From an uncultured virus (IMG/VR IMGVR_UViG_3300014526_000001) (taxonomy: Duplodnaviria > Heunggongvirae > Uroviricota > Caudoviricetes): DNA of 20,000 nt. The translations under genes were made by a program, and so were the position numbers. The DNA lies in the IMG/VR virus record IMGVR_UViG_3300014526_000001. One strand, 5' to 3'. Positions 3,810 to 20,000 of this stretch are shown piece by piece. Below the pieces are notes generated by a model that saw only the letters and a list, made by a program, of their open reading frames with translations, did no database searches and was not told the origin of the DNA. Each line of letters starts with the position of its first letter. Position 1 is the stretch's first letter.

Positions 3810-3821
3810 CTGGATACTCTA

Positions 3822-4409: not shown

Positions 4410-4574
4410 TTATGAACATATGAACATTGTTTATACATCTTTTTATACAAACAGCGTAAACGTTGGTATAACAGTTACTTGTTTGTTTTGTTTTTCGTTT
4501 TGCATAAAATCGTGTATATTTCATATGACAAATGTGGCTATTTCTTATTAGTACTGATTGATCTAAAATTGCAG

Positions 4575-4855
4575 CTATACACTCATATCCTCTTTCCTCG
4601 GTGCTTTCTCTAAAAGCCGAATAACTCTTTCGTATCGCTTACCTATCTCTTCAAACTCTTCTCGAAAAACTTTTGTGACCAAAAATGGCGCCAATGTTTT
4701 CCCTACAGCCACAATATCACCTGGTTGAAGATATTGACATCACGTAAATGTTTAGGATTATGCCAAGTATAGGGTTTAGGATATAGTTTCAATATGTCAC
4801 TATCTTTTTTACTTTTGATATGAAATCCTGAAAGTGTATTATCATTTTTAGTCAT
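4575..4855 (-). pseudogene. Frameshifted DUF5839-like protein
   Basis: RBS AAAGAGG then MTKNDNTLSGFHIKSKKDSDILKLYPKPYTWHNPKHLRDVNI, a frameshift near 4730, then QPGDIVAVGKTLAPFLVTKVFREEFEEIGKRYERVIRLLEKAP. Length 281 bp is not a multiple of 3. Confidence 0.7.
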
Positions 4856-4956
4856 ACATAATTCCTCTTTTGATTAAAGTCTCGAAATTCATTTTAAAAA
4901 CTTCATGAGAGACGTAAAAACTTTTATATATACCCTCCAAGATATTTTTTCTACTA

Positions 4957-5349
4957 TTATTTACTATCCAATTTAATAGTTTCCGTTTTCCCGTCCCACT
5001 CTAATGTTGCTTTGATTTTATCATTTTCAGTTGTGTAAACTTTACAGCCAGTACATTCGACATTACCTATGTGTACATTGTCTTTTTGGTTAAAAGTGTC
5101 TTCAGCAATACCAATATTCAACGCTGTACTCTCTATTTTATATACAAATACTTCAGGTGCAGGTTCTTTTCCAATATATTTAAATATATATTCTCCAAAT
5201 TCTCTTTCTTTAGTAACTTCAGTGTTGTACGTAACACTCCAATTGTCACTTTCTCCATAAAAATTATATTTTTTACTATTATCTAGACAAGCGCTTAAAA
5301 TCAAGATTACAAAAAGAAATATAGCACCTAAGATTTTATATCTTTTCAC
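4957..5349 (-). CDS. Lipoprotein of unknown function
   Basis: GTG start with AGGAGG RBS; signal peptide ending in lipobox LSAC; 130 aa. Confidence 0.85.
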   Translation of the reverse strand: MKRYKILGAIFLFVILILSACLDNSKKYNFYGESDNWSVTYNTEVTKEREFGEYIFKYIGKEPAPEVFVYKIESTALNIGIAEDTFNQKDNVHIGNVECTGCKVYTTENDKIKATLEWDGKTETIKLDSK

Positions 5350-5448
5350 TATTTACCTCCTTAATTCCAAAAAATACAAATTATATATTTATTTCCCTTG
5401 TTTTTTAGTATATCATTATGGTAATAAATAGAAAAGGAGAAAGATATT

Positions 5449-6015
5449 TTGAAAATAAAACATATTTTGGCGATTTTTATTACCCTAATTGGACTGACTT
5501 ATTTTACATCACAAGAGGCTTCTGCAAATACTCTTGACACAAGTGATACTTCTGCAGACATTATTGACACAAGTGATAAATTTTTCTCTAAGATAAAAAT
5601 ATTTGATGCAAATGGTGAGCACATTTCTTATACAACCGAAGAATTACAACAAATGTTCACATTTATCCCTTATGATTCTACTGCTAAAAAAGATTTGAAT
5701 TTAATAATTCCATTTGCAAGTACTTATAACTCTAAGGCATTCAGCTTCAAAAGTAATATCTGGCTCAATGGTGGAATTGGATTTTATAATCCTACTAATA
5801 TCACAATAACTCCAGCAGGATCAAAAGCTTTTTCATTTTTTATCTATAATAAGGATCATGGAACAGAAGTATTCAGATTAGATGTCCCTGAAGGTTTGGT
5901 GGGCGGATTCCATTATGGATTAAGTCATTATGCAAGAGGATACGATTATAGTTTTAAATTTGAAAACTTCTTTTCAGGTACAGTATATATGACTAATGTT
6001 GCTGTTACTTATTAG
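5449..6015 (+). CDS. Secreted protein of unknown function
   Basis: TTG start with AAGGAG RBS; Sec signal peptide ending ASA; terminator follows. Confidence 0.85.
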   Translation: MKIKHILAIFITLIGLTYFTSQEASANTLDTSDTSADIIDTSDKFFSKIKIFDANGEHISYTTEELQQMFTFIPYDSTAKKDLNLIIPFASTYNSKAFSFKSNIWLNGGIGFYNPTNITITPAGSKAFSFFIYNKDHGTEVFRLDVPEGLVGGFHYGLSHYARGYDYSFKFENFFSGTVYMTNVAVTY

Positions 6016-6037
6016 TAAATATAATGGATTAACTCTT

Positions 6038-6067
6038 GGCTAGCTTAAGCTAGCCTTTTTTGTTTTT
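6038..6067 (+). terminator. Rho-independent terminator
   Basis: ggctagc-ttaa-gctagcc followed by a T-tract, just after the stop at 6015. Confidence 0.85.
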
Positions 6068-6231
6068 AATATCGAACAAATGATAATAAATATAGCTGCT
6101 TGATATTTATTTTTTTGAAAGTGAAGGAACGCTTTTTATGCTTGCTATACTTATAATTAAGTGCTTTGCATAAAGATTTAAAAATAAGCATAGCAAACTA
6201 GAGGTATGATTTTTCATCATTCTTCATTTGA

Positions 6232-6433
6232 TTAAAGATCACGTAACTTGGCCAAGATTCTCTCACGTTCTTGTGCAAAATAGGCATTCTTTTCTTCGGT
6301 TACTTCTTCTTCTGGCTCATGACGCGTCGCAAACCACGCTGGAACTACTTCTACTTTTCTAGATTTCTCTTTTTCTGACCCTGTAGATGCATTCGAAACC
6401 GTTAAATCGTTGATTTTGTTGCGAATAATAGCA
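6232..6433 (-). pseudogene. 3' remnant of a Rep/DnaB-C-like or HTH replication-type protein, copy 1
   Basis: Translates as AIIRNKINDLTVS...KVEVVPAWFATRHEPEEEVTEEKNAYFAQERERILAKLRDL*; no start codon; homologous to 7619-7810. Confidence 0.6.
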
Positions 6434-6532
6434 CTTCACTCTTAATCCTGCACGTTGTACTTAGCCTTTTAACACATTACATGAAAAAAAACGATTTGTT
6501 CACAATAGGCGGCTCTTTTTTATCAAACAACA

Positions 6533-6561
6533 TTTACTTATATAACACTTTAATGTATTAT
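6533..6561 (+). promoter_or_regulatory. Putative sigmaA promoter
   Basis: TTTACT-17 bp-TATTAT upstream of RBS GGAGG (6571-6575) and ATG 6585. Confidence 0.45.
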
Positions 6562-6584
6562 ATTGGAATAGGAGGTATATTAAT

Positions 6585-7268
6585 ATGAATTTGAAAAAAT
6601 TATACAAAACTCAATTTAGTAATAAAAAAATTACAATCATGGCTTTACTTTTATCAATTTTACTATTCGGAATGGCTAATAAAACAGCATTTGCAGCCTC
6701 AGAAGAATTAACATTGGTACAAAAACAATCATACTACGAACAATATGAAACTATTATTGAAGAAGCAAAAGTAAAATACCCAGAAGCTGCTTTATCCCTT
6801 AAACCTTTTGAAGATTTTAAAACTGAGGAATGGGTAGAAGCTGCGGAATTTGCGGAAATTGTAGAAGATATGGTTAATGCTGAATTTGTGATAGATATGG
6901 GTAATAACGACTTTGTTGCAGATCAGCCAAAACTTGGAATTATGCCTTTGTCTTCTCATGGGACAGTTATACCTACCAAAAACGTAACTACAAAGATTAA
7001 TGACTCAGATGTTACAATATGGGTTACAGGTTCTTTTAATACAACACTTTCTGGAGGGGTACAGAAATTTGACGGTACAATTAATTCTGTAGTATCTTCT
7101 TCTAACAAAGGACATTGGACACAAACAGGATACAGTCCAACATTAAAAAATAGTAATAAAACATGGAGCATCGAAGTTACTGGAAAATGGGAGTACGGTG
7201 GAGCTCAACAAGGTGTTAAAAATGTAACTATACAATTTACTATTAGTTCAACTGGAGTTGTTAGTTAA
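6585..7268 (+). CDS. Secreted protein of unknown function
   Basis: 227 aa; signal peptide ending AFA; acidic helical N-half and beta-rich C-half. Confidence 0.85.
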   Translation: MNLKKLYKTQFSNKKITIMALLLSILLFGMANKTAFAASEELTLVQKQSYYEQYETIIEEAKVKYPEAALSLKPFEDFKTEEWVEAAEFAEIVEDMVNAEFVIDMGNNDFVADQPKLGIMPLSSHGTVIPTKNVTTKINDSDVTIWVTGSFNTTLSGGVQKFDGTINSVVSSSNKGHWTQTGYSPTLKNSNKTWSIEVTGKWEYGGAQQGVKNVTIQFTISSTGVVS

Positions 7269-7312
7269 TTTTAAGTAAATGAGAAAAGAGAGTAGCTTTA
7301 GTTAATCTCTTT

Positions 7313-7563
7313 AGACTATAGACAAAAGCTATCGCGAAGTTCACTCTCGATGGCTTTTGTCATTTTTCTTCTATGTCATTTTTAATATTTGGTAATATAC
7401 TATCAAATACAACATACTCTTCGAAAATAGATACTCTGCTCTGGACAATTTTTTAAAACCTATTAAGGTTGTTCATCGCATACCTTGCTTTTCCTTTGCA
7501 TAGATTTGTTTAATGTTATAGGAATGGCGTAAATGTTCAGCTTCCTCTACATACGTTTCCAAA
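7313..7563 (-). mobile_element. Degenerate IS1182-family remnant (transposase C-terminus plus IS end)
   Basis: Minus strand reads ETYVEEAEHLRHSYNIKQIYAK/EKQGMR*TTLIGFKKLS, matching the IS1182 C-terminal pattern with the RKETIERVFAD segment deleted. End-like agactatagacaaa at 7313; internal hairpin at 7321-7361. Confidence 0.75.
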
Positions 7564-7618
7564 ATATTTAAATGAGCACAACAAACTAGAGGTATGTTTT
7601 TTTCCATTCCTCTTTTGA

Positions 7619-7810
7619 TTAGAGATCCCGTAACTTAGCTAATATTTGCTCACGCTCTTGAGCAAAATAGGCTTTCTTTTCTTCTGTTAATTCTTCTTCT
7701 TGCTCATGACGAGTCGCAAACCATGCCGGTACTATTTCTACTTTTCTAGATTTCTCTTTTTCTGGCGCTACAGAAACCGTTAAATCGTTGATTTATTGCG
7801 AATAATGGCA
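7619..7810 (-). pseudogene. 3' remnant of a Rep/DnaB-C-like or HTH replication-type protein, copy 2
   Basis: INDLTVSVAPEKEKSRKVEIVPAWFATRHEQEEELTEEKKAYFAQEREQILAKLRDL*, with a frameshift near 7793. Confidence 0.6.
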
Positions 7811-9728
7811 TTATACACCATATAGAACTTATTTTTTATATTTTATTCCGAGACTAAAAAGAACATTTAGATGAAAATGTGTATTTTTTGAATCCTACCA
7901 AAAAGCCGATATTTCTAATTTAAATTACTCATTTTACTTCTAGTCCTTAATTATTAAAGATTTTTTTAAGAATTTCTTTGACCTGAGTAAACCTTGTATT
8001 TATATTTTAATTTTGGGTACTCGACTTAAATATTAATTAATGAAATATTTTTTCTTAATACATTTTTTTACCTCTATACATATTTAAAATTTAAGCAGGA
8101 AGGCTGATTTACATAATTAGTGTTTGCAACAACGGTGCCTATGAAAGCCCCCTACTCCCATTTTAAAAAACTCATTACCCCTCTTCATTTAATACCCTGA
8201 AGCGTTTTATCCATGGAACTTCATGAAAATTGCATGTGGTTCTGAAATAATCGAAATTAATAAGTTTAGACTTATATAAATTAGAAAATAATACGATTTT
8301 CTAATTCTCTTTCAAAAAAAGTGATTTTTTGCCTTTTTGAAATACGTAACTCTAATCTTTTAAACAAAACGATATAATCAAGTGATTCCTTTTCTTGAAC
8401 AATAATGTTTCATATTAATAGCTAAGTTCCTCTATTTTGTAGATATAAATAGCAATAATATAATCAAACAATTTCATAAATGTGAGCAATAATCAACATT
8501 ATAAACTTCTTTGACCACCTTCTTAGTCAGTAATTTTCAGGCAATCAAGTGCTAAAGATTTGCAATGATATCCAAATAAAAATATTACTTCAGTATGGTC
8601 TAATACTTCAAAAAGTATAAAGCTGTTAGAATTCTTATAACTATTCATTTTTAAATATCACTTAACTTCACTCTAAGAAAGAATATCCATTATATATTTC
8701 AATTCTATTTTGATCGATTAGATTTATTAACTTATCTAAATAAATCTGGATGCTATTTCAATTGTAATTGCTATGTTGTTCATAGAATAAACAATTACTT
8801 AATATGGTGCTTACCTAGTATCCTCCTGTCACTAAGAATTTTTTTATACCAAATTGATTCCTAATAGTAATTCTTTAGATTTTTAAATATCACTTTTTTT
8901 CTAACGAGTTATAAAACCCCTCCCCTATTGCTGCCATTTCAGATAACTCTTTCATTATGAATTTTATATGCATCACTAAAAAATTTATAAGGATAATCGT
9001 TTGAAATTTTGTTAAATGATTTATGATGAATTCTATTTTTTAAAAACCTAGGAAACTTTCTGGTACATTTTTATAACATACTAGTTAAACATGCCGTATG
9101 GTGAAATTTAGCAATAATCCAATAAGATGCTATTTATTACATCCACTATTTGAGCATTAATACGTTATTGATAAGTAACCTCTTAATATCATTACAATAA
9201 ATTAGAGATCGGTTCATATTTAATGCTTCTACCACTTCTAGAGTTGTTACTCCTCTTGTGAAACATATCGTTATTACAATCGCTAATATTTTAAAGTGAA
9301 GGTTTTGCTCAATTTATATTTATGAACTAGTTTTTACACATGAAATTTTGAAAAAAGCTACTTACTAATGCTCGCTGGTTTATCAGCTTTTTTTCATTGC
9401 AATTCAAAGCTATATTCTTTATATCTTAGTTTCAGACAAATACCGAATTATTCGTTCTATGTTTCTTTATTACAAATAAATTTTACTGGAGGATACTAAA
9501 CGATTTAGCAGATGTTAATTTTAGAGTTGTATAAATGAGTCGTAAATATTTGAACTACGTTTAATACAACAATAAGTAAGCTTTAATATTGTAAGTAACT
9601 TTAATTTAAAATTTAGATTCATTGTTTTAACTTTAACAAAAATAAGTAGTCCCCTCTTATACTGTCATTAAAACCAGATAGTTTATTTACAGATGATTCA
9701 AAATAAGAAAGAACAAATAGTTATACGT

Positions 9729-9782
9729 TAATATTTCTGAATATTCTGAAATATTAGTATTCAAAGGGAATTAAATTCCCAC
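9729..9782. promoter_or_regulatory. Near-perfect 28-bp palindrome (9729-9756) plus GGGAA-N5-TTCCC site copy 4 (core 9766-9780)
   Basis: taatatttc-t-gaatattc-t-gaaatatta then aaagggaattaaattcccac, ~70 bp upstream of the first gene of the structural module. Confidence 0.6.
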
Positions 9783-9854
9783 CCGTATTTTGTCAGATTG
9801 AAGAATATAGGTATTTTTTATAGTAATAGGGTTTTTAAAGGGAGGGCGTCTGAA

Positions 9855-10121
9855 GTGAGCACAGTTATCGTAAATGGGTTCGTTACAACAGAGGGAAAAG
9901 TTGTAGTTACCAATAAGATCGAAACAGATCAGAATGGAAAGCAGTTCATTGTAACAGAAGGAGTATACAAAACGGATATATATATTGAAGAAATTGAGTC
10001 AATAGAAACTAAATATTTCGCACTACATGAAGTTTTTGTTGTCGAAGAGAAGTTTTCATCCGAGACAAATGAGATTTGTTATAAATTTTTTGCAAGAGAA
10101 TTAGAGAGACTTGAGTGTTAA
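9855..10121 (+). CDS. Hypothetical phage protein (88 aa)
   Basis: GTG at 9855 follows GGGAGGG, a better start than TTG 9798. Confidence 0.75.
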   Translation: MSTVIVNGFVTTEGKVVVTNKIETDQNGKQFIVTEGVYKTDIYIEEIESIETKYFALHEVFVVEEKFSSETNEICYKFFARELERLEC

Positions 10122-10364
10122 GGTGGACAACATAAATTTAAACGTCGTTGGTCCCCTTTTCTTAAAAATACAATGGAAAAGTGATTATTAAATTAGCAGT
10201 GAAGTAAAAAAGAGAAGAAAATTCATTAGATTGGGGACTATTCTAACGATCCAGTTACAATTGTTTGAAAAATATTAAACTGCATAAAAAGAAAAGTCCA
10301 CCATCGATTCAATACAAGCTAAATATGGTAAGAGAAATTTTGAAAAACATCGGAGGGAACTGTT

Positions 10365-10712
10365 ATGACAAATAGCTATATTAAGACGATATTGGGCGAT
10401 TGGGGATTAGCCATTAAGTCTAATGGTGCAATTAACAAAATTATTGATGAGACTAACGGAATGCCGATTGTGCCAGAAACAATATTCGGACATATTCCAG
10501 CAGCACTTGCAAATGCGAGAGGAAAAAACAGTAAAGGTTACCTGAAAGAATTGGAGAATGCCCATAGAAAATTTGATATTAACGGGCGAACAATAGGATG
10601 GAATGAGGCAGCTATTGCAGGATCGTTCATTTCTCTTGGCACTGCGTATCATGTAGCAACACGTCGTGGTGCTAATGGTCAAGGTAATGAAGGCGGTATT
10701 CCAAATATATAA
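10365..10712 (+). CDS. Gly/Ala-rich phage protein, candidate virion-internal or ejected protein
   Basis: GGAGGG RBS; C-terminal hydrophobic segment AAIAGSFISLGTAY. Confidence 0.8.
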   Translation: MTNSYIKTILGDWGLAIKSNGAINKIIDETNGMPIVPETIFGHIPAALANARGKNSKGYLKELENAHRKFDINGRTIGWNEAAIAGSFISLGTAYHVATRRGANGQGNEGGIPNI

Positions 10713-10727
10713 AAAGAGGTGATACAA

Positions 10728-11171
10728 ATGGGATTAGGAAGAGCATGGAATGCAATCAACGGTGGTTCCCCTATCATTGCTGCAACCAGAGATGGGTTAT
10801 GGTCTGGGACAAAGATGTTAGGTAATTCCATTGGTAAAATTTCAAAATCTGCTGTCGGGCCACACGGTCCAATTCAACGCTACGGTAATGTTGCTCTTGA
10901 TTTATACGGTGGATTTATAAAATACACACCTGAAAAAATGTATTTTAATAAAAGAAAGGGAGAGCTCGTTACGAAGCCAGGAAGGTTCAGTTTGAGTAAA
11001 ACTGGTCTTGTTGCAGGAAGTATTATTGGTCTTGGTGTGATGGCTAAAGACATCCAGGATGAAAGAGCTGGTGTATCAACTGGAGTAACAAGAGCAACTC
11101 CTAGTTATTTAGATAATGCTGGAGCAACTGGAGATTTAGTTTTCGCTATGCATCAAAATAGGAAAGGATGA
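10728..11171 (+). CDS. Gly-rich phage protein, candidate virion-internal or ejected protein
   Basis: GAGGTG RBS before ATG 10728; TM-like GLVAGSIIGLGVMA; ends GATGDLVFAMHQNRKG. Confidence 0.8.
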   Translation: MGLGRAWNAINGGSPIIAATRDGLWSGTKMLGNSIGKISKSAVGPHGPIQRYGNVALDLYGGFIKYTPEKMYFNKRKGELVTKPGRFSLSKTGLVAGSIIGLGVMAKDIQDERAGVSTGVTRATPSYLDNAGATGDLVFAMHQNRKG

Positions 11172-11178
11172 TCAATAC

Positions 11179-11607
11179 ATGACACTTTTAACAGCCCTTA
11201 AGGCGACTGGAAAATTTGCAAAAAAAAATGTTGGTGGAATGGTGACCATTGCTGGCCATACCTATGGAGTAGCTTCTGCTTATAACGAAGCTAGAGATAA
11301 TGGAGCGGGAGTTGTTGGCGCATCAGCCCAAGGTCTCACGGCTGAGTTCCTACCAAATTTAATTGGTCAGCCCGCTCACCTTGCTTGGCAAGGTGCAAAC
11401 TTAGCGAAACAAGCATTCTTATATTCAAATCAAAAAGCAAGGGAATATAGTAGATATGGAACGGAAAGTCCCTTCGCTTTTGCTACGCATGTAGATACAA
11501 AACAAACCTATACCATGCGACAGGCTGGATTAAGTCAAATCCAGCAAAATATGTTTAATACTAAGAAAGCTATGATGGGTAATGAGGCTATGTTCTTGCA
11601 TAGGTAA
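11179..11607 (+). CDS. Ala/Gly-rich phage protein
   Basis: Closely follows the previous gene; C-terminus TMRQAGLSQIQQ...MGNEAMFLHR resembles, from recollection, small proteins encoded near terminase genes in large Firmicute phages. Confidence 0.8.
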   Translation: MTLLTALKATGKFAKKNVGGMVTIAGHTYGVASAYNEARDNGAGVVGASAQGLTAEFLPNLIGQPAHLAWQGANLAKQAFLYSNQKAREYSRYGTESPFAFATHVDTKQTYTMRQAGLSQIQQNMFNTKKAMMGNEAMFLHR

Positions 11608-11879
11608 ATAAGAGTGTTTTTCCTGTAAATTCTAGGTCTATAGCATCTAAGACGGTCAAACAGCAAGCGAAAAAGAGAGTGCGGGGGATCTCTTTATGAG
11701 TTGAAATTTTATGAATTATAGTAGCCCGGAATTAGGTCAGTTTGTTGCTAATAATTTTATTGATACACGGGGGATACAAATACTATGTGACAAGCAGTTT
11801 TATTTGCAAATAGCCAATCTTGATTTTAGAAACTGTGATGATTGGCAATGATGCTTGCATTGATTAGGAGAGAAAAATA

Positions 11880-12668
11880 ATGGCAAAAGGAAAATCAAAA
11901 GGTTCTAAAAGAGGAAGAAAAAAACAAACAACCGAAGAAAGACTAAAACAACAGCATCATCAGCAACGAAGAGCTAAATTCTTTACCGGAATGGAAGAGG
12001 TAAAAGGAAAAGTCCTGACACCACACTACTCACAAGCATTGAATATTTCAGATAAAGATTTTCACGTAGCATATGGCCGACATATGAAAGATGAAACTTT
12101 CACAAATGCATCTGCTTTTGATAAAAGAAAAATAATGAATGATTATTTTATTGAGAAAAAAGCTAAAGGAAGAGTAAATGCTGATCCTGGGAGCAGCACC
12201 TACCAAAGGCAGTTAGAAAGAGAAAGGCAAGCTATATACTCAGAAATCAATGCAGCAAAAAATGGTACCAATTCAGGCATATTCAATTTTGACAGTGCGT
12301 CTAATGGCGCAAAACATGCTTTTAATGAGAATGAGCGAATAAATGATTTCTTCAGGCAAAACACAACGAGTCTTACAAATCAAGATATAAGGAAAAGAGC
12401 TTTAGAAGAGTATGAGAAAGTTGGACTCACAGGAGATAATTACCATAACTTTGTGAACAATAAAAATGGATTTAGAGACAATATTTTCACGCAGAGTTCC
12501 AATAATGCTGGGTTGAATCCCACTATGATGGATCATTTATGGGGAAATAAGGTACCTCAAATTGCAGGTGGAGCTCTACTTACTGCTGGGCTAGTTAGCT
12601 CGATGTCAAATTCAAAAGGTAAGCAAACCAACGCAGAATTATATAACCAAGCACAGCCGTATTATTAG
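11880..12668 (+). CDS. Phage protein with a highly basic N-terminus and C-terminal hydrophobic segment
   Basis: AGGAG RBS; starts MAKGKSKGSKRGRKK; ends IAGGALLTAGLVSSMSNSKGKQTNAELYNQ. Confidence 0.85.
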   Translation: MAKGKSKGSKRGRKKQTTEERLKQQHHQQRRAKFFTGMEEVKGKVLTPHYSQALNISDKDFHVAYGRHMKDETFTNASAFDKRKIMNDYFIEKKAKGRVNADPGSSTYQRQLERERQAIYSEINAAKNGTNSGIFNFDSASNGAKHAFNENERINDFFRQNTTSLTNQDIRKRALEEYEKVGLTGDNYHNFVNNKNGFRDNIFTQSSNNAGLNPTMMDHLWGNKVPQIAGGALLTAGLVSSMSNSKGKQTNAELYNQAQPYY

Positions 12669-12669
12669 T

Positions 12670-13000
12670 AAATCTGGATCCAAAAGCACAAATAGTTTTC
12701 ATAGCTTATTAAAGGAAGTAAGGACTTCATTTATGTTGAATCGGAAGCTAGTTTATTGTTTCTTAGTATGCCATTTTAAGGAAAGTATTAGACCTCTTTT
12801 TCTCAGTAGGGAATTTATATAGAACTTTATCGTATTTTAGGGTGCAATGTGATTAGCCAGAAATTCAAAGTAATTAAATGTATAAAGGTGAAAAAGCACT
12901 TTTACATTTATTAAAGTGCAAAATAGAAATTACATTTCTCTTTCATAAACTTATAATGCAGGTTTAGTTAACGAAGAGAGGATTAAGAGTGGTATTAGAT
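12670..13000 (+). pseudogene. Putative heavily eroded terminase large subunit remnant
   Basis: Scars in the expected order: DFIYVES (12723, Walker-B-like), SMPF*GK (12765, STPxG-like), ILGCNVISQKFKVIKCIKV (12834-12890, nuclease-domain-like). Inference by eye. Confidence 0.4.
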
Positions 13001-13080
13001 CGACAAGCATACGCTTATATATTCTGTACTTAGGGACGAGAAGGAGTTTAACAACAAGAAATGTCTGATAATAATACTGT

Positions 13081-13111
13081 ACTCCTTCATTATTTCTGAA
13101 GGAGTTTTTTT
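13081..13111 (+). terminator. Intrinsic terminator immediately upstream of the NlpC/P60 gene RBS
   Basis: actccttca-ttatttc-tgaaggagt followed by a T-run. Confidence 0.7.
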
Positions 13112-13128
13112 AGGGGAGGGAGAAGGCA

Positions 13129-14865
13129 ATGAGCGAATTATTTTATAAACCAAGGATAGTGCCCGATTTTGATTATTTGTCCGAAAAAGAGTTCAAAGAT
13201 ATCCTAGATCGAGAAAGAGAAGATAATATAGAACCTGAAAATCCGGATTCCCTTGATGACATAAAAGATGAGGCTATAAGAATTGCTAAGGAAATTGATA
13301 AGATCAAAAAAATCATTAATATTCTTCCTGGTAATCTACCACAGACATATCGTGATGCATTAAATAAAATCCAAAGTGATTTGTTGAATCCACCTCCTAT
13401 AATTAAGGATGGAGGACCATCAGATATGGAAATAGAATCTGAAATGGAAACTGATACCGTTCCAGGACCTTCTTATAACGGAGATACAGTGGTAAAAATA
13501 GGAGATAATGATATCGACACTATTCTACTATTCCCAGACGACAATGGTATCAAGGTTAAAACAACAAAAGTAGGCTCCCTGATTACATTTATTCGTGAAA
13601 GTTTTTTAAAAGACAAGAATGATATGTATGGGAATTTTGTTCAAAAACTTAAACTTATGATCCAACAATATATGAGAGAACTTTTGTATATTGCAAAGTC
13701 CGGTCATTTCAATTCTTATCTAGATTTATATGTCCGATTTGATACGCCTTCAGTAGAAGTTTCTAAAGATTTAAAAGCTGCAGCTGATCGTATTTTGAAG
13801 TACCAGATTGATCGAGAACAAAAAACAAGATTATTAAATAAGATTTTCAACATTGAGCAGACAGTTGTTCATTTAATATCTAATAAAGTGTCCTATGAGC
13901 AAAGACAACGATATTATGACATGGAATACCTTGAAGCTAAGGATTATATCGAGACGCAGGAGAATGATGAGCTTCGAAAGATGAGGCTAGAGTACGACAA
14001 GAAGTATGAGCAGTGCATGTATAACTATTACAAATACCTAACGGGATCCACCATTTTGACAGATGAAATATTAAAGACATTCCTATCTGAAGCAAGAGGT
14101 AAGGCCTTGCTAAATAAGAATGGAATTGATACGCAAAAAGGATACAAAAAAGAGCAAGAAAAGCAACAGCAAGTTGAAGCAGAACTTAAAAAGCAGACTG
14201 AAGAAACCCAGAAAAAAGAAGAGGAAAAACAAAAATTACTCCTCGAGGAGCTCAATAGCGCAGGCCGAGACTCTTCTTATTCTGGAAGCTACGGAGATAA
14301 GTCAGGTGTCGTAAATAGCAATGGAGCTGCAATAAATAGTTCAGTCTCTGGATCCGAAGTAGAGCTGGTATCAGGAAGCATTCCTGAGAAAATTGTAAAG
14401 ATGGCCCTCCAAGCATGGAATAAACGTGGACCTAATTCAGGTAATCCAATTAAGTACAGCATGAAATTGCGATCCCATAAAATTTTTAATAGTAACACGA
14501 CTCATTCTGATTGTTCTGCTTTTGTTAAAGGCGTTGTATTGGAAGCTACTGGTATAGATGTCGGTAGTAATACATCTGACCAGGTAAACAAAAACAAGAA
14601 CAGACAATGGGTATTCAACATAAATGAACTGCAGCCTGGTGATCTAATTTACTTTAAACCTATAAAAGGGGATACGTATCAAGGTCATGCCATCACACTT
14701 AACGGAAGAAGGTACAATGTCAGCCATACACTCATTTACTTAGGTGACAAAGAAGTGATTGAGTGCACAAATGGAGCAAATGGATTAAGAAAGTTTAATT
14801 TCACTAGTGGTTGGCACAAAACAAATTACATGGAACCAAGATTTTTAGGGGCATTCAGATTATAG
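13129..14865 (+). CDS. Phage structural-type protein fused to a C-terminal NlpC/P60 cell-wall peptidase
   Basis: DCSAFV (Cys codon 14512), LQPGDLIYF and VSHTLIYLG (His codon 14725); preceded by a helical N-domain, a Glu/Lys/Gln coiled coil and a Ser/Gly linker. Confidence 0.9.
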   Translation: MSELFYKPRIVPDFDYLSEKEFKDILDREREDNIEPENPDSLDDIKDEAIRIAKEIDKIKKIINILPGNLPQTYRDALNKIQSDLLNPPPIIKDGGPSDMEIESEMETDTVPGPSYNGDTVVKIGDNDIDTILLFPDDNGIKVKTTKVGSLITFIRESFLKDKNDMYGNFVQKLKLMIQQYMRELLYIAKSGHFNSYLDLYVRFDTPSVEVSKDLKAAADRILKYQIDREQKTRLLNKIFNIEQTVVHLISNKVSYEQRQRYYDMEYLEAKDYIETQENDELRKMRLEYDKKYEQCMYNYYKYLTGSTILTDEILKTFLSEARGKALLNKNGIDTQKGYKKEQEKQQQVEAELKKQTEETQKKEEEKQKLLLEELNSAGRDSSYSGSYGDKSGVVNSNGAAINSSVSGSEVELVSGSIPEKIVKMALQAWNKRGPNSGNPIKYSMKLRSHKIFNSNTTHSDCSAFVKGVVLEATGIDVGSNTSDQVNKNKNRQWVFNINELQPGDLIYFKPIKGDTYQGHAITLNGRRYNVSHTLIYLGDKEVIECTNGANGLRKFNFTSGWHKTNYMEPRFLGAFRL

Positions 14866-14866
14866 G

Positions 14867-15013
14867 GAATATAATTTAGATACAAATCTTGGTGAAAATA
14901 TAAAAACTATTATTCAGGTCAGCAAAAAAGCAGATCCACCTCCAAAAAGAGATAGAAAGTTTATCAGGCTGTATAAAAAGTGGACAAAGGTGCGTAATGA
15001 ATGGTTAGAGGGA
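14867..15013 (+). pseudogene. Putative collapsed portal protein remnant
   Basis: EYNLDT at 14867 and NEWLEG at 14996 resemble N- and C-region motifs (EYxL.., NELLxEGG) recalled for portals of large Firmicute phages. Inference. Confidence 0.3.
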
Positions 15014-15099
15014 AAGTTATCATAGTGGTATCTTGAAGCATTTTTATTTCTGAAATATTAGCGATCTTAAAAACTAAAAATAGAAGAGGTACTTACATG

Positions 15100-15390
15100 C
15101 TTATGTACCAATCTCTGTGAACTCATGGAATGTTGACAATGATGGAGTCCAAAATAGGTCAATTTGCCGTTTTATACGTTTTTGAGAGAGGATTAAAAGT
15201 CTGGTAAAAGCTAGAAGTACCTTACACTCTTATCAGACCTAACAATAATAGATAGCAAAACCATTAGCAGATTATATAAGATAAGAATTTTGCTAGGAAC
15301 ATCTGTATGATTTGTTAAATCAGTTCTATCTGATGGGCCAGCATCGGGACTCTCAAGAAAAACGTCTTAAGCATTCACAGAGGGGTTAAC
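15100..15390 (+). pseudogene. Putative eroded prohead protease remnant
   Basis: gttaaatcagttctatctgatgggccag (15314-15341) is a few indels from VKCSICGQ and is followed by an H..RG-like scar (15373-15387). Inference. Confidence 0.3.
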
Positions 15391-15511
15391 TCAAAAGAAA
15401 CTATAGCGCGTCTGTTACACCTATTACAAAGTAATATTGAGGGGCTGTAAATTTTATTTGAAAATGAAACTTCCCATTTAAAATATTCAAGAAAGCGGAG
15501 GTTAATGTAGT

Positions 15512-15901
15512 ATGACACAAGTCATTGGAAAAGTTGGTTTATCAAAAGGCCGCGTAGGTTATTTTGATGAGCTAACACGTATTCATTTAACTATTTCTAA
15601 ACCAGAAGCTTCCGTATTAGCAGGTATGAATACTGCCAATCTTAAACGTGCTATTCGCTCAGGCATTTTGCGTCTAGTTACTGGTTCTTTAGAATTGGAG
15701 CAAAATAAGGTCGTTAAAAATATCCATGTGCAGGAAGTAACTAAGGCAGCGAAAACTGTAGTGGAAGAAAAAGTAGTTACGATTGACGAAGCTCTTGCTA
15801 ATGCAAATGTAGAAGAAGGAAGGACTGTAGAACCAAAGAAGATAGACGCAGCAAATGAATCTAAAATTACTAGACGAAAACGTAAAACAATTAAACAATA
15901 A
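15512..15901 (+). CDS. Hypothetical phage structural-module protein
   Basis: GGAGG RBS; N-domain VGYFDELTRIHLT and a low-complexity tail ending RRKRK. Confidence 0.85.
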   Translation: MTQVIGKVGLSKGRVGYFDELTRIHLTISKPEASVLAGMNTANLKRAIRSGILRLVTGSLELEQNKVVKNIHVQEVTKAAKTVVEEKVVTIDEALANANVEEGRTVEPKKIDAANESKITRRKRKTIKQ

Positions 15902-15913
15902 GTAGGTGTCTTA

Positions 15914-16669
15914 ATGTACAGAGAGTTTGGAATAGTTGGTATTTTCACGAACCTCGTTGAGCGTACTATTAAAGTAGAATTCACACTTGACATAGATCCA
16001 GACAGCGCTTCATTAGACTCACTTGTCCTTTGTGATAAAGAGACTTCTAGGATTATCTTGGCGGACATTAAAGTTAGTAAAAAAGTAATCACAATGTATT
16101 TGCAAGAATGGCCAGAAGCAGGAAAGCAGTATCTTTTAAGAATTCAATCGGGGATTCGTTCAATAGTAGAAGATATACTATCAGAATCTCTTTTAAAAGA
16201 AATTGTTTTTAAAAGCGAAGTACTCTCGACAGTAAATGTGCTATCTCCTTCAAACCATGAGGTTCTAAATGAGCTGCATTTTCTGTGGGAAGAGGTAAGT
16301 GTTGATGGAAAAAGGGAAAATCTAGTTTCTTCATATTTACTACAGATAGCAAAGGAGAATACATTTTACAATGTTGTTCGAGAAACTGAAGTAGTTGAGA
16401 AGCAGGAGATCCGAATAACAGATATTGATGAAGGCCAGTACTACTTAAGGGTTCGAGCGCAAAAGAATGGAAAGTATGGTCGATGGAGTAAAGTCATTTC
16501 ATTTCTAGTAAGGCAAGCGGAAGATAAAACATCGTCTTATGAAGAGCAGTTAAAAATAATATCAGCTCCTGTAAATGGAGAAACTCCTCCCTCATTTGTA
16601 TTTCAGTTTGATGAAGAAATCGACACAGATATAATGCCTTCAATTGTTGTGAAGAGGAGGTTGATTTAA
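15914..16669 (+). CDS. Ig-like / fibronectin type III domain virion protein
   Basis: FN3 signature GQYYLRVRAQKNGKYGRWS; beta-rich. Confidence 0.8.
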   Translation: MYREFGIVGIFTNLVERTIKVEFTLDIDPDSASLDSLVLCDKETSRIILADIKVSKKVITMYLQEWPEAGKQYLLRIQSGIRSIVEDILSESLLKEIVFKSEVLSTVNVLSPSNHEVLNELHFLWEEVSVDGKRENLVSSYLLQIAKENTFYNVVRETEVVEKQEIRITDIDEGQYYLRVRAQKNGKYGRWSKVISFLVRQAEDKTSSYEEQLKIISAPVNGETPPSFVFQFDEEIDTDIMPSIVVKRRLI

Positions 16670-17200
16670 TTGAGTAAGGTTGAATTCTCCGTAAAAATTT
16701 ACGGCAATACAATCGAAATCATTCCTTCAGAGCCAGTCAAAGATAATAGCATCTATGACATTACTTTCACAGATGTAAAGGCAAGGTTAAAAGAAAAACG
16801 ATTAGAAAAAGTCTGTACTGAAGTCTATACAAAAATGTCTCCATCCTATTGTTCCTTAGAGTCAGTAAATTCTTTAATCGATAGTATTGATCTCGAAGAT
16901 GAGCGCATTCTTTATTACATCAAAGAAGCTTCTCGATATACAGAATATATTAGCGGGAAAAATTTTGATGAAGCAAACGTTCCATTTAATGTACACCAAT
17001 TTGTAAAATTCAGAGCAACTCATGATGCTATATTGAAGCTATTTATCGAAAAAGCATCTGAAGCTGGTCGAAGCGGTAAAATGGGAGAATTAGAATTCAA
17101 GATGAGCGATTGTATTGATTCATTGAAAGATTTGCTTGACTACTTAAAAGGTGAATCGGACAAGTGGGAAAGCAAAGTCTTGAGTGGAATTACTACATGA
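16670..17200 (+). CDS. Ig-like domain plus head-tail connector/adaptor-like protein
   Basis: TTG start with GAGGAGG RBS; IEIIPSEPVKDNSIYDITF (Ig-like), then YCSLESV and a helical adaptor-like region; position before closure and tail genes. Confidence 0.6.
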   Translation: MSKVEFSVKIYGNTIEIIPSEPVKDNSIYDITFTDVKARLKEKRLEKVCTEVYTKMSPSYCSLESVNSLIDSIDLEDERILYYIKEASRYTEYISGKNFDEANVPFNVHQFVKFRATHDAILKLFIEKASEAGRSGKMGELEFKMSDCIDSLKDLLDYLKGESDKWESKVLSGITT

Positions 17201-17265
17201 ACATAAAGCTGTTTGATCAGGTAACTACTCTATTGTTTTATCTGGATTCTTGAGGGGGCATTCAA

Positions 17266-17718
17266 TTGAAAAAACTTCAGTGGATAGACAAAGAGATTAA
17301 GAAAATAATCGAGTTGTTTGAGTATGACATGTATGTAGTCAGAGTCGATACCAAAATCGACTGTACATGTAAAGATTTCACAACTAAGCAAGGAGATCCA
17401 AGACATAAACTATGTCTTGGTACTGGACAAAAAATAAAGATCATGAAGATCAAGGGGGCTTCACATGAGGGACATACTTCCCTCATAAGCCAAGAAAATA
17501 ATGATATAGGGTTAGGTAATATTTATTACTTCAAATCTAATAATTGTTTAAATGAAGGAGACTTAATTGTAGACAAAGGTAAAATTAGCATTGTTCAAGG
17601 GATTGAGCGGAAGAAAGGGACACAGAGAGAATGCGTTTATCAAAAGTGTATATGCATTAACAAGAGAACAGATGTCCAAATTTTCCTAAAGAATTTTGAT
17701 GAAGTCGTAAAGAGGTGA
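17266..17718 (+). CDS. Head-closure/neck-like protein with a Zn-ribbon motif
   Basis: CTC...DPRHKLCLGTG and LNEGDLIV; position in the neck region. Confidence 0.6.
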   Translation: MKKLQWIDKEIKKIIELFEYDMYVVRVDTKIDCTCKDFTTKQGDPRHKLCLGTGQKIKIMKIKGASHEGHTSLISQENNDIGLGNIYYFKSNNCLNEGDLIVDKGKISIVQGIERKKGTQRECVYQKCICINKRTDVQIFLKNFDEVVKR

Positions 17719-17723
17719 TAACC

Positions 17724-18755
17724 ATGTTAGATATTTATTTGGAAACGGAAGCGCAGACTATTATCAAGATAGCAGATAAGAATAAATCCGTTCTCATCAT
17801 TGGTGATGCCGATAGCGATTATGCTTTAAATACGATTAAGTATTACGACTCTACGAAAAAAGCACGAAGCGACTACAAGGGAGGCAAATTGATTGATGCC
17901 TTTGACGCCGCAAAAGAGTTTCAGGCAGAGTTTGTCTTTCTACTGAATTTGAAAGAAAAAGTAGATTATATTGATTTGATAGATATATTAAAGCAGTATG
18001 ATTTTGCTTACATTACTCCTGTAAATCTCTATATCTCTGATTATTTCTATGACTTAAACAGAGGAAATAAGCGTGTTTATTATGCACAAGATTACTTAGA
18101 GAGAGCATCTGTTTTTAATGATTCGACTCTTATTCTAACGGATAAGCATGCAAGCTTATACGAGGATATTGATGTTTATTTAGATGAAATGAAAAAACAA
18201 TGCGGCCCTATTACAGGCGTAGTGAATACTGGCTCTAAAGGTAATAACTTAATCTATGTAGCCAACAATTTAAAAGATTATCCATACAGCAATGTTGTTT
18301 TAGCAAGCATTCTCACAACAACAGATTTAGGAGAATATCCATCTATTAAAGAGTTAGATGTAGTATTCGACATGGATGATTTTGATGTTGGAGAGTTCCC
18401 TATTGTCTATTTTAAAAATAACTTCCAGACTAAGACAACAATAGAAAACTTAATAAATTTCGAAAAATTTAATCCGATATTTAAATCCGTCTTTGTTGAT
18501 CGCATTTTAAAATATATATCAAGAACCTATGATCTTTCAAAATATACTGGAAAACTCTATACTCCTCATCAGAAAATTTTAATAGAAAAAGAGATAGAGA
18601 CGTATTTTGAATCATTAACTAATTGGATTATTCGAAAATTTGAGATTGAAACTGTTGTCTTTTACAAGGAAGACGTAGGGGTAGGTAGAGTTGAGAGCAC
18701 AGTATCTATATGGCCAAAAAGTACAACAGAAAAATATAGATTAGTGGTGAAGTAA
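17724..18755 (+). CDS. Short tail-sheath-like paralog
   Basis: N-terminus SVLIIGDA...GKLIDAFDAAKEFQAEFVFLLNL parallels the N-terminus of the sheath at 19463; C-terminal IEKEIETYF...VSIWPKSTTEKYRLVV resembles the sheath C-terminal domain. ATG 17724 follows GAGGTG. Confidence 0.6.
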   Translation: MLDIYLETEAQTIIKIADKNKSVLIIGDADSDYALNTIKYYDSTKKARSDYKGGKLIDAFDAAKEFQAEFVFLLNLKEKVDYIDLIDILKQYDFAYITPVNLYISDYFYDLNRGNKRVYYAQDYLERASVFNDSTLILTDKHASLYEDIDVYLDEMKKQCGPITGVVNTGSKGNNLIYVANNLKDYPYSNVVLASILTTTDLGEYPSIKELDVVFDMDDFDVGEFPIVYFKNNFQTKTTIENLINFEKFNPIFKSVFVDRILKYISRTYDLSKYTGKLYTPHQKILIEKEIETYFESLTNWIIRKFEIETVVFYKEDVGVGRVESTVSIWPKSTTEKYRLVVK

Positions 18756-19432
18756 TGGAAAAAACAGATAATAATTTGTTTACAAACAACCTAGAGTATC
18801 TGTTAGCACAAGAGGATAATGTTATTAATAACATTGTTGAAAAATCAATGATTCTTTCTCACGAGCAAAAAGTCATTCCCCCACTAAAAGCAAATAAAAG
18901 TGCTAACTTATATGATTTCATTCAAATGATTGGAAAAGTTGTATCTAAGGCAATGAATGAAGATCAAGTAGAGTTTGTCTTTGATGAAGGAAAACGATTG
19001 TCCAGTGACCCGAATAAAAAATTTGATCATCCTTATATTACATATAAGGTGTTATCAAGAAAAACGTTGATGGAGTTGAAACCCAGAGAAAGAGAATCAT
19101 CCATTTCTGAGGTGGCTCAAAGCGACAAAGATAAAAGACATGGGCGCATTTATGGACAAAAATTTAAATCTTATATCCAATTCAATATAATAGCTAGTGA
19201 ATATACGCAAGCGGATAGAGTAATGAATGTCTTTGAAGACCTAATTTTTTCCTACACTCATTACTTTAAAAAGAACGGTGTAGCAGAAATTTTATTTGAA
19301 GATCACCTAACAGATAAAGAGTATGATGTCTATCGTCATTTTCTGTCTGTTCGTAACTTAGTTTATTATGTTGAGATTGAAAAACTATTCGTTATGTTTG
19401 ATTCGGACATTGAAGGTATCTTCATTAAGTAA
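18755..19432 (+). CDS. Tail terminator/completion-like protein
   Basis: Overlaps the previous stop (TAATG); PYITYKV...IQFNIIA...ADRVMNVFEDLI pattern; lies directly before the sheath gene. Confidence 0.6.
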   Translation: MEKTDNNLFTNNLEYLLAQEDNVINNIVEKSMILSHEQKVIPPLKANKSANLYDFIQMIGKVVSKAMNEDQVEFVFDEGKRLSSDPNKKFDHPYITYKVLSRKTLMELKPRERESSISEVAQSDKDKRHGRIYGQKFKSYIQFNIIASEYTQADRVMNVFEDLIFSYTHYFKKNGVAEILFEDHLTDKEYDVYRHFLSVRNLVYYVEIEKLFVMFDSDIEGIFIK

Positions 19433-19462
19433 AGTCAAGTAATTTAAGGGAGGAAGTAAAAA

Positions 19463-20000
19463 ATGAGTTTAATCGACAATGAAACATTCTTGCCAGGCGT
19501 TATTACTGAAGTAGAGTCCGATTACTCTTACGGCTACGATTCAAGTCAATTTGGTACTACTGATTCAGTGGTAGTTGTCGGTACGGCATTCAGTGGTCCT
19601 GTAGGCACGCCTGTTCCAATCTACAACCCAGAGCATGCTCGATACATCTTTGGTAAGACATACGAATCTGGGAGTAAAAAAGCAGCGACTCTAGTTTCTG
19701 CTATTGAAGATGCTTACCAAAAGGGGTCTCGCACAATCTATGCTGTGCGTATCAGCGGTAAAGAAGCTTCAAAGGATTTTGAGTTTAATAGTGATTCAAT
19801 TTATAAATTGCGCTTACGCAGTACGTACCCTACTAATCAGGCAAAAGACTTCTTTATGGTCTATGATAATAAAGAAGGCGAAGAGAAAATCAAAATCTTT
19901 AAGCCAGCTGAACGTGCTACAATCGTTGAAAAAATGCAAGGAGCCATCGTAAGTGAAAATGACACTATTGTCCTTGAACTAAAATTAAATCTTGATTACG
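19463..20000 (+). CDS. Contractile phage tail sheath protein (5' part, truncated by the window end)
   Basis: GGGAGG RBS; frame open to the end: MSLIDNETFLPGVITEVE...VVVVGTAFSGPVGTPVPI...IFG...TLVSAIEDAYQKGSRTIYAVRISG, a classic sheath N-terminus. Confidence 0.9.
   Translation, partial: MSLIDNETFLPGVITEVESDYSYGYDSSQFGTTDSVVVVGTAFSGPVGTPVPIYNPEHARYIFGKTYESGSKKAATLVSAIEDAYQKGSRTIYAVRISGKEASKDFEFNSDSIYKLRLRSTYPTNQAKDFFMVYDNKEGEEKIKIFKPAERATIVEKMQGAIVSENDTIVLELKLNLDY

Follow-up and report, generated by a model that had tools for sequence, protein, structure and literature searches.

The DNA analysed here (the window) comprised 20,000 nucleotides, corresponding to bases 13063–33062 of a single 137,994-bp record in IMG/VR (IMGVR_UViG_3300014526_000001); the right-hand half of the window is occupied by an operon of phage structural genes. 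A sequence-only reading had taken this operon (9855–20000) for a domesticated, headless contractile tail from a jumbo-type phage. The record has a G+C content of 35%, direct terminal repeats and a completeness rating of 100% in IMG/VR; it was taken to be circular because it falls in the class with direct terminal repeats. Pfam and PHROG scans of the record located ParA, ParB and a ribbon-helix-helix (RHH) protein outside the window, along with a Bacillus-type replication terminator protein (RTP), a single-stranded DNA-binding protein (SSB) and an SNF2 helicase, while a tyrosine recombinase and a sigma-like factor were encoded elsewhere in the record. Near-identical proteins were found under the names Lysinibacillus fusiformis, L. 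pakistanensis and Lysinibacillus sp., on contigs of 133.5–140.7 kb. Judged from its genes, the record is a circular 138-kb plasmid-like element of Lysinibacillus; by comparison with phage-plasmids, it was found to possess plasmid maintenance genes and an incomplete phage gene set, from which packaging and head genes were missing. The comparisons below provide solid grounds for regarding it as a head-less, plasmid-borne derivative of a jumbo phage-plasmid with maintained structural genes. Literature searches found no description of such a Lysinibacillus element, and comparison of 9855–20000 with plasmids and phages by megablast returned no match.

The operon consisted of 13 co-oriented open reading frames (ORFs) on the plus strand, extending from 9798 or 9855 to 20000, and most were preceded by GGAGG-like ribosome-binding sites, as the sequence-only reading had described. 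All 13 had collinear homologues in head-bearing relatives. At the right-hand end, the window included the N-terminal 179 residues of a tail sheath protein (19463–20000, plus strand; phrog_16991, E = 3e-18), the identity of which was borne out by the complete ORF of 1003 amino acids (aa) that continues past the window (E = 6e-62 to the same family). This was preceded by a gp138-like virion protein (18755–19432, plus strand; phrog_20284, E = 1e-26; 103 database homologues), which may, by position only, be a tail-completion protein. The ORF before that (17715–18755, plus strand) occupied the position of gp137 and had homologues in 32 loci at the same position. It had been read as a sheath paralogue, for which hhalign gave weak support (E = 9e-4 to a sheath-like 350-aa protein of plasmid pG9842_140, and E = 1.4e-3 to the C-terminus of the element's own sheath), and only one of 20 family members matched a sheath PHROG.

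Downstream of the sheath lay two tube paralogues, a split chaperone pair and an ORF of 2,691 aa in the position of a tape measure, followed by a 2,688-aa lysozyme/hub-like protein, a baseplate J-like protein (identified by a weak match, E = 8e-4, plus its position), a 1,633-aa protein and fibres. The two giant ORFs are adjacent (record 42673–58843; L003:5640-13715 and L004:17-8083). The tape-measure assignment reflects position and length only; orf146 of phage 0305phi8-36 was likewise assigned from tail length. The 2,691-aa ORF was the most variable between strains (14–49 differences) and the 2,688-aa protein, which matched a PHROG of 1,954 positions labelled 'endolysin' at E = 1e-177, was far more conserved (2–12 differences). 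Outside the window, the record also encoded a BhlA-type holin, an endolysin with Amidase_2 and SH3 domains, further wall hydrolases, and approximately 15 lectin-like or carbohydrate-binding, fibre-like proteins belonging to the F5/8 type C, LamG, CBM96 and pentaxin-like families. A check of the downstream region for tube, tape measure, baseplate and fibres had been proposed beforehand, and the tube, tape-measure-position, baseplate, fibre and lysis genes were all intact. From these assignments, the contractile-tail gene set is kept and intact, comprising neck, sheath, tubes, chaperones, tape-measure-position ORF, hub, baseplate and fibres.

The sheath, tube and neighbouring proteins matched phage 0305phi8-36 and plasmids of Bacillus, Paenibacillus and Clostridium. 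Searches with tblastn, blastp and phmmer tied the element to gp114, gp115, gp127, gp135, gp136, gp138, the sheath, the tube and the chaperones of 0305phi8-36, in the same order. Searches for related loci with single proteins, or in genome contigs, returned nothing; only an alignment-based scan of viral contigs succeeded, which identified 35 loci, many on contigs of 140–248 kb. On the strength of this gene order, the element has its origin among jumbo myovirus phage-plasmids, in the lineage represented by 0305phi8-36 (described in PMC2147016) and pBtic235 (for which PMC8026635 records a plasmid lifestyle), and the jumbo-phage origin suggested earlier was thereby upheld. The structural genes of 0305phi8-36, of pBtic235-type phage-plasmids and of relatives of approximately 200–250 kb in IMG/VR are collinear with those of the element, from the gp113-like gene to baseplate J. 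However, these relatives measure 205–248 kb compared with 138 kb for the element, which is without the gp112-like gene, large terminase, GroES, portal, protease/scaffold, decoration protein and major capsid protein (MCP); its head-tail adaptor is without a C-terminal extension, and its gp118-like protein carries an NlpC/P60 domain. Since its own large terminase (TerL), portal, protease/scaffold and HK97-type capsid are missing, the element was considered a derivative of the lineage rather than a phage belonging to it.

The absence of head and packaging genes held across the whole record. Pfam and PHROG scans of its 113 ORFs turned up neither a terminase or portal nor a prohead protease or capsid. 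Six-frame, stop-tolerant searches of the record with phrog_2 (TerL), phrog_9232 (portal), and phrog_3922 and PF25209 (MCP) also found nothing, while the same family searches recovered the positive control, 0305phi8-36, at E = 7e-36 for TerL, 1e-183 for portal and 7e-72 for MCP. Custom hidden Markov models (HMMs), built from 30 portal, 28 protease/scaffold, 32 decoration protein and 35 MCP sequences of the relatives, gave no credible match when run against the record as 5,262 six-frame fragments. Even at E <= 10, nothing in the record matched the models for portal, decoration protein or MCP; the protease/scaffold model had one weak match (E = 0.015), to a coiled-coil ORF elsewhere in the record; and, with filters off, the best value for any head-gene model in the window was E = 0.58. 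A control model, for a 129-aa gene of the operon, scored E = 8e-33 in the same search. Two PHROG matches labelled 'major head protein' were the tube paralogues, the label originating from the NCBI product field of gp140 and gp141 of 0305phi8-36, the notes of which say tail tube. Among the relatives, MCP and portal were present in all 22 that were at least 45% complete; of 23 records searched together, 22 had MCP and 22 had portal, and the single exception was the 138-kb record. TerL was found in the records of 21 of 35 relatives, including eight of the nine that were at least 90% complete, and in every one of the 35 loci blastp identified a capsid ORF of 402–437 aa, situated upstream of the gp138-like gene at a distance of a few kb. 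When the protein database was searched for capsids, no Lysinibacillus was named among the 120 matches listed; most of these were without a name, and the result carries little weight.

Within the operon there were four spacers without ORFs, at 10122–10364, 11608–11879, 12669–13128 and 14866–15511, each where the sequence-only reading had placed it. These were interpreted by comparing the 20 kb upstream of the neck genes in 12 head-bearing relatives, for five of which the gene maps were read. Every ORF of the element between 9798 and 16669 had homologues in these upstream loci (in two to 12 of the 12, depending on the gene). In all five maps the order was a 9798-like gene, gp112-like, gp113-like, gp114-like, gp115-like and 11880-like genes, zero to three small ORFs, TerL, a gp118-like gene, a Cpn10/GroES-like gene (identified as such in the one relative tested), portal, protease/scaffold, decoration protein, MCP, a 15512-like gene and a gp127-like gene. 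The first spacer therefore corresponds to the slot of a gp112-like gene (225–272 aa, with four conserved cysteines), which lies between the flanking homologues in 12 of 12 relatives; no remnant of it was detected in the record, where the best tblastn match (E = 0.64) was elsewhere and the best HMM value was 1.6. The third spacer is the slot of TerL and zero to three small ORFs, between the flanking homologues in five of five maps; a pattern scan of this spacer identified a terminator-like hairpin (13081–13105) and promoter-like sites. The fourth is where the GroES-like, portal, protease/scaffold, decoration and MCP genes would have been, these five occupying it in those maps for which each gene was tested. 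Opposite the second spacer no gene is missing, as its flanking homologues abut in the relatives.

No family matches were obtained from the spacers when 100 stop-to-stop fragments of the spacers and window 1–9800 were searched, head-gene families included, and no aligned contig from another run contained extra DNA at any spacer. Given that the relatives' genes occupy the slots and that no remnant was found, spacers 1, 3 and 4 are best described as clean deletion junctions rather than decayed genes. Thus, the earlier notion of packaging genes collapsed at the spacers was right in so far as three of the four match lost genes, but these were apparently excised without remnant and the spacer at 11608–11879 matches none. 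The comparison indicates that the gp112-like gene, TerL, the GroES-like gene, portal, protease/scaffold, decoration protein and MCP are lost, by clean deletions at three junctions. The ORF-less spacers and low coding density had at first suggested recoding, and hence an artefact of gene-calling through another genetic code, or of a mis-joined assembly. This explanation has a negligible probability: translation under table 4, or with TAG read as glutamine, left the spacers open and did not fill the ORF-poor region of the window, the junctions were reproduced in independent assemblies of 135.9 and 137.4 kb, and the element's proteins occur on many contigs of 133–141 kb.

Two further features of the relatives were observed at these positions. 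In one relative tested, a Cpn10/GroES homologue (Pfam, E = 4e-27; L052:11325-11627) lay between the gp118-like gene and portal; an ORF of 98–100 aa occupied the same slot in L050 and L055, where its identity is by position only, and no such ORF was present in L047 or L048. The Cpn10/GroES-like protein may be a co-chaperonin for capsid folding, lost here along with the head genes. Several head-bearing relatives (L047 and L048 among them) had TerL in two or three ORFs, separated by 0.2–1.5 kb, with another ORF within the gap in one instance, which suggests inteins or introns, as reported for BtI1.

The neck genes were retained. The 176-aa product of 16670–17200 (plus strand) has an N-terminal Ig-like domain and is predicted to fold as a head-tail adaptor of the HK97 gp6/SPP1 gp15 type. 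The structural model had a pLDDT of 80 and aligned best to head-tail adaptors, the alignment figures being 9.0 for the connector of mycobacteriophage Douge, 8.8 for the Mu neck subunit and 8.7 for the phage 812 neck, followed by HK97 gp6 (7.2), the SaPI1 neck (6.5) and SPP1 gp15 (6.4); Foldseek gave weak E-values alone, the best being 0.02. The next gene (17266–17718, plus strand) encodes a 150-aa, gp136-like protein with four conserved cysteines (phrog_38102, E = 3e-5), whose AF2 model (pLDDT 87) is predicted to adopt the fold of a stopper, or head-closure protein, resembling SPP1 gp16. In Foldseek, its model matched the phiCD508 neck (E = 1e-4) and the phage 812 stopper (E = 2.5e-4), as well as SPP1 gp16 and PBSX XkdH. 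These models agree with the neck-like genes noticed previously. Alignment profiles of the neck and gp112-like proteins, when compared with PDB sequences, matched nothing beyond an FN3 domain.

The adaptor differed from its homologues at the C-terminus, where it ends ...KWESKVLSGITT and is without an extension of approximately 30 aa (longer in more distant homologues). This basic extension was conserved in all 20 aligned head-bearing homologues and was also present in seven of seven database homologues at 44–79% identity (204–207 aa). The orthologue from L. pakistanensis (89% identity) is likewise 176 aa long, and, from these alignments, only members of the head-less clade have the truncated form. 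A sister lineage, on contigs of up to 249 kb, has an adaptor of 205 aa and a gp138-like protein at 76–79% identity. In connectors of solved structure, the C-terminus of the adaptor inserts into or binds the portal. Retention of the adaptor and stopper, and of gp113–116-like and gp118-like virion proteins that accompany heads, might indicate that the element depends on a helper, as satellites do, with heads from a co-resident, head-bearing relative completing its tails or its DNA; relatives with adaptors 64–79% identical do exist in databases. Against this, the conserved adaptor extension has been lost, neither a terminase nor a gp112-like gene is left to direct packaging, and no co-resident relative came to light, host assemblies lying outside the search. 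Moreover, known assembly pathways bring the adaptor and stopper with the head, so that a helper would supply its own. Helper dependence was rated as distinctly unlikely.

The remaining genes of the operon lie upstream of the neck. The frame of the first ORF is open from TTG at 9798, and GTG at 9855 has the better ribosome-binding site; standing behind AAAGGGAGGG, it is the likelier start, and the one adopted in the sequence-only reading. This first ORF (9855–10121, plus strand) had homologues at the same position in nine of 12 upstream loci. It is followed by a gp113-like small protein with a glycine-rich hydrophobic segment (10365–10712, plus strand; blastp to relatives, E = 3e-5), whose homologues in the relatives match gp113 of 0305phi8-36, a virion protein by mass spectrometry according to the record's annotation. 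Next come a gp114-like protein (10719–11171, plus strand; homologues in 10 of 12 relatives, best E = 3e-15, and E = 1e-4 to gp114 itself) and a gp115-like protein (11179–11607, plus strand; 12 of 12 relatives, best E = 2e-19, and E = 5e-4 to gp115). The ORF at 11880–12668 (plus strand) encodes a basic protein of 262 aa, full length in 11 variants, with homologues in nine of 12 relatives aligned over residues 214–261; only its C-terminal 45 aa, a hydrophobic segment, are common to the relatives. The three small upstream proteins and the 262-aa protein each carry a glycine-rich hydrophobic segment and correspond to gp113–116, three of which are annotated as virion proteins in the 0305phi8-36 record. 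Closer to the neck are a 129-aa protein (15512–15901, plus strand; custom HMM, E = 8e-33), which follows the capsid gene in relatives and was seen by alignment to have a conserved N-domain of 65 aa and a low-complexity basic tail, and a gp127-like protein with Ig/FN3-like domains (15914–16669, plus strand; gp127, E = 2e-12; homologues in 32 loci), whose FN3 profile matched PDB chains at E = 8e-5.

Between these groups lies a 578-aa protein (13129–14865, plus strand), with homologues in 12 of 12 relatives (best E = 9e-36). It combines a gp118-like virion-protein core at residues ~4–345, a coiled coil, and a peptidoglycan endopeptidase domain of the NlpC/P60 type at residues 456–560 (Pfam, E = 4e-9). 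A possible capsid remnant at residues ~112–203 of this ORF (tblastn and blastp, E = 1e-4 to 4e-4) was rejected when an HMM of 35 capsid sequences did not confirm it. In the relatives, the gp118-like core ends bare or with other C-terminal modules, two of which look like wall hydrolases by eye; three other members of the family, when scanned with Pfam, gave no match. The sequence-only reading had identified the NlpC/P60 gene correctly and had treated it as cargo of a device like the extracellular contractile injection systems (eCIS). On that interpretation the tail would inject cargo, or serve some other non-bactericidal use such as adhesion or action on eukaryotic cells, and the many lectin-like and carbohydrate-binding fibre genes, and the small hydrophobic proteins and hydrolase encoded upstream, could be enlisted in its support. 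Systems such as Afp, PVC and MAC are indeed headless contractile particles released from cells, but the element's sheath and tube are of the 0305phi8-36 type. The Pfam scan of 113 ORFs found no Afp15-type AAA+ ATPase, eCIS-type cap or other eCIS-type family and no toxin-cargo family, with no dedicated eCIS profiles being run. Peptidoglycan is the substrate of the hydrolase domains, so that bacteria are the likelier target, and the gp118-like carrier with its variable hydrolase modules occurs also in head-bearing phages. The supposed cargo gene was placed in this virion-protein family instead, and an injecting or otherwise non-bactericidal device was rated as improbable.

The same region was found repeatedly. 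Between 71 and 100% of sampled words from 10001–20000 were present in 20 runs from 14 studies, one of which may be the source sample, and the contigs of four runs were aligned to the window. A contig of 137,441 bp and a circular contig of 135,926 bp covered the window across all spacers with no insertions, the only structural differences among the contigs being deletions of 425, 81 and 1,398 bp, all in the ORF-poor part. Over 9685–20000 (7832–20000 in one run), there were 0.9–1.4% base differences and 0.7–3.6 gap letters per kb. Most pieces of 1–9600 had 0.6–2.1% base differences and 5–16 gap letters per kb, two short X12 pieces being exceptional (~0.6–0.7 gap letters per kb). The 11 distinct full-length variants listed for the 578-aa protein were all 578 aa long, and the 15 listed for the sheath were all 1003 aa; the 15 listed for the 1,633-aa protein measured 1,633–1,634 aa, and those for the 2,691-aa protein (also 15) measured 2,668–2,692 aa. 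The 2,688-aa protein was full length in 13 of 15 variants listed, the other two being fragments on short contigs, and the tube protein (210 aa) was a single sequence, identical on 26 contigs. Among the variants listed, there were no truncated structural ORFs on long contigs (133.5–140.7 kb).

Divergence was greater between species. The L. pakistanensis proteins differed from this copy at 41 of 1003 residues in the sheath, 114 of 1633 in the 1,633-aa protein and 26 of 262 in the 262-aa protein. In both L. fusiformis and L. pakistanensis, accession numbers were consecutive from the 262-aa gene to the tube genes, and the genes separating the 262-aa gene from the sheath numbered exactly seven, the same as in this copy. 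Because this numbering leaves no room for head genes, both copies are inferred to be head-less too. On this evidence, the head-less arrangement is a fixed feature of the element across several Lysinibacillus species. Neutral DNA would not be expected to keep upwards of 12,000 codons open over such divergence, and this argues for purifying selection. As a rough and unpaired comparison, typical sheath variants differed at 0.1–0.5% of residues, set against 0.9–1.4% of bases for contigs. The proposal of host selection for a headless particle is supported to this extent; however, the plasmid looks multi-copy, and selection may act on the plasmid instead. In three isolate-like runs, the k-mer depth of the element's contig was approximately 1.4–4 times that of other long contigs touching a short repeat, k-mer depth being no measure of copy number.

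The conservation bears on whether the element is simply an inert remnant, a defective phage-plasmid surviving as a plasmid, whose unused tail genes are intact only through recent deletions or linkage. The conversion of phage-plasmids into plasmids through loss of phage genes is documented (PMC10879196), and three Bacillus plasmids with tail genes and without terminase or capsid were called degenerated remnants in PMC8026635. The 10 kb beside the operon is also ORF-poor and rich in indels, and contains the strain-specific deletions of 425, 1398 and 81 bp. Yet the head-less order is common to copies that differ by up to 4–10% in protein sequence and have no truncated structural ORF on long contigs, sheath residues vary less than bases in the unpaired comparison above, and the losses are limited to packaging and head functions. 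An inert remnant seems unlikely, without being far-fetched.

The ORF-poor part of the window (1–9800) was AT-rich (25–32% G+C), with ORFs of at least 80 aa covering 0.3–0.5 of its length; these were few and short, and included a DUF4241-like ORF and a helix-turn-helix fragment. It looks like decaying or non-coding DNA beside a conserved operon. A direct repeat of 178 bp, 85% identical, occurred at 6210–6387 and 7597–7774, with a 227-aa ORF between, and one strain was without 6433–7832, as if it had recombined between the copies. A segment of ~50 bp within 7315–7371 occurred also in several other long contigs of the host assemblies, and is a short dispersed repeat of plasmid and chromosome. Rfam and tRNA scans of the window found nothing. 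Immediately before the operon was the palindrome GGGAATTAAATTCCC (9766–9780), 32 bp upstream of TTG 9798 or ~75 bp upstream of GTG 9855. The palindrome GGGAATTNAATTCCC was present in five copies in the 138-kb record, always intergenic, four of them in the window (36–50, 3191–3205, 3234–3248 and 9766–9780) and the fifth at record position 1736; two copies form a larger inverted repeat at 3179–3260. The copy at 9766–9780 may be an operator, a late-promoter element or the binding site of a regulator.

Elsewhere on the element there were three radical-SAM genes (record 77963–82896; L005:8326-13259), two of them like peptide maturases of the PapB/SCIFF type, which suggests a cluster for a ribosomally synthesized and post-translationally modified peptide (RiPP) on the same plasmid. 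Downstream of these were approximately 11 kb of ORFs without a known family. The ORFs at record 83–94 kb (938, 644, 342, 375, 319, 158, 406 and 351 aa) had no match in Pfam, PHROG or NCBIfam, and the 938- and 644-aa ORFs had no phage match by tblastn; the 644-aa ORF had an Atlas score of 0.83, which is a lead only. These ORFs might be structural, although TerL, portal and MCP have no likeness among them. One genome had the element's proteins on a contig of 5,028,939 bp, where the element may be integrated in the chromosome or may have been assembled together with one.

Among known systems, the element most closely recalls the R-type tailocins, that is, R-pyocins, diffocins and clostridial examples such as clostocin O, which likewise possess a contractile tail and lysis genes without capsid, portal or terminase. 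Its genes include a sheath, tube, tape measure (by position), baseplate, fibres and a lysis cassette, with no capsid, portal or terminase. The tailocins known so far are small, chromosomal and derived from ordinary temperate phages. The element, in contrast, is plasmid-borne, has a locus many times larger and a jumbo-phage ancestry, and has kept an adaptor and stopper, head-completion proteins that tailocins are not known to require. Its 2,691-aa tape-measure-position ORF would imply a much longer particle. The P1-like phage-plasmids that have lost phage functions and persist as plasmids offer another parallel, but what they have lost varies, with tail, lysis and regulator genes among it (PMC10879196), whereas the element has lost packaging and head genes only, and its tail is conserved.

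Two other plasmids, pG9842_140 of Bacillus cereus G9842 and Csp_135p of Clostridium saccharoperbutylacetonicum N1-4 (136–140 kb), carry the sheath, tube and gp138-like genes of the lineage. The same family searches found no TerL, portal or MCP in either, and Pfam found nothing head-like upstream of their tails. They differ from the element in having a gp138-like protein only ~28% identical and a different set of genes preceding the tail. A quick tree of a single protein placed the element within a 17-row clade that includes head-bearing relatives (SH-aLRT 99), and the two plasmids were far from it, on long, poorly placed branches. Since the element groups with head-bearing relatives and away from both plasmids, the losses look independent. 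We take accession CP001188.1 to be pG9842_140. One paper calls CP001188.1 a degenerated myovirus remnant. Csp_135p was considered as the source of clostocin O and rejected, a review placing clostocin O on a chromosomal R-type prophage (PMC10538166). A protein with a domain like the Thoeris anti-defence protein Tad2 was noted upstream of the Csp_135p tail genes (L009:12211-12705).

Taken together, these observations are best explained by the element making a giant, plasmid-borne, tailocin-like headless tail particle, to which a probability of about 0.5 is assigned. On induction, the late operon, perhaps controlled via the GGGAATTNAATTCCC palindrome and the element's sigma-like factor, would build very long tails, roughly 0.4 µm if the tape-measure rule is applied to 2,691 aa. 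The head-proximal end of each tail would be capped by a remodelled neck, composed of the stopper and the adaptor minus its C-terminal extension, and the particles would be released through lysis by the holin and endolysin. Carbohydrate-binding fibres would then attach the particle to related bacteria, contraction would follow, and the wall would be breached by virion-associated hydrolases, namely the NlpC/P60 domain on the gp118-like protein and the lysozyme-like giant protein. The particle would kill in the manner of an R-type tailocin, tailocins being described as killers of related strains in PMC10538166, and both plasmid and host would benefit, as with a bacteriocin plasmid.

Several points weigh against a functional particle. 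The case for it is built from gene content. The element has kept gp113–116-like and gp118-like virion genes that lie in the head and packaging block of 0305phi8-36, as well as two head-completion proteins. Some decay is ongoing in the ~10 kb beside the operon (1–9800), and a comparable plasmid was read as a degenerated prophage remnant in one publication (PMC8026635). Cognate head genes were absent from the 138-kb record, host chromosomes not having been searched.

A broader and more tentative proposal, considered possible but doubtful, is that giant headless particles, ~0.4 µm or longer, are produced from megaplasmids and arose more than once from jumbo phage-plasmids (in the Lysinibacillus element, pG9842_140 and Csp_135p), the head block being cut out each time. 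The Lysinibacillus stopper and shorn adaptor would have been re-used as a cap, and the plasmid would spread and persist like a bacteriocin plasmid. If true, tailocins would have a new route of origin at the level of plasmids, and no larger tailocin would be known.

In the Lysinibacillus element, the tail of a jumbo phage has apparently been kept entire on a plasmid after precise removal of the head and packaging genes, together with dozens of fibre-like genes and two ORFs of ~2,690 aa. The existence of head-bearing sister lineages allows a direct comparison of which genes belong to the tail and which to the head in a poorly understood lineage, and the element lets the remodelling of the neck after portal loss be addressed. 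It also bears on whether the domestication of phage tails extends from chromosomes to plasmids. Active particles, if such they are, would provide a new scaffold, unusually long and fibre-complex, for the targeted killing of Gram-positive bacteria.

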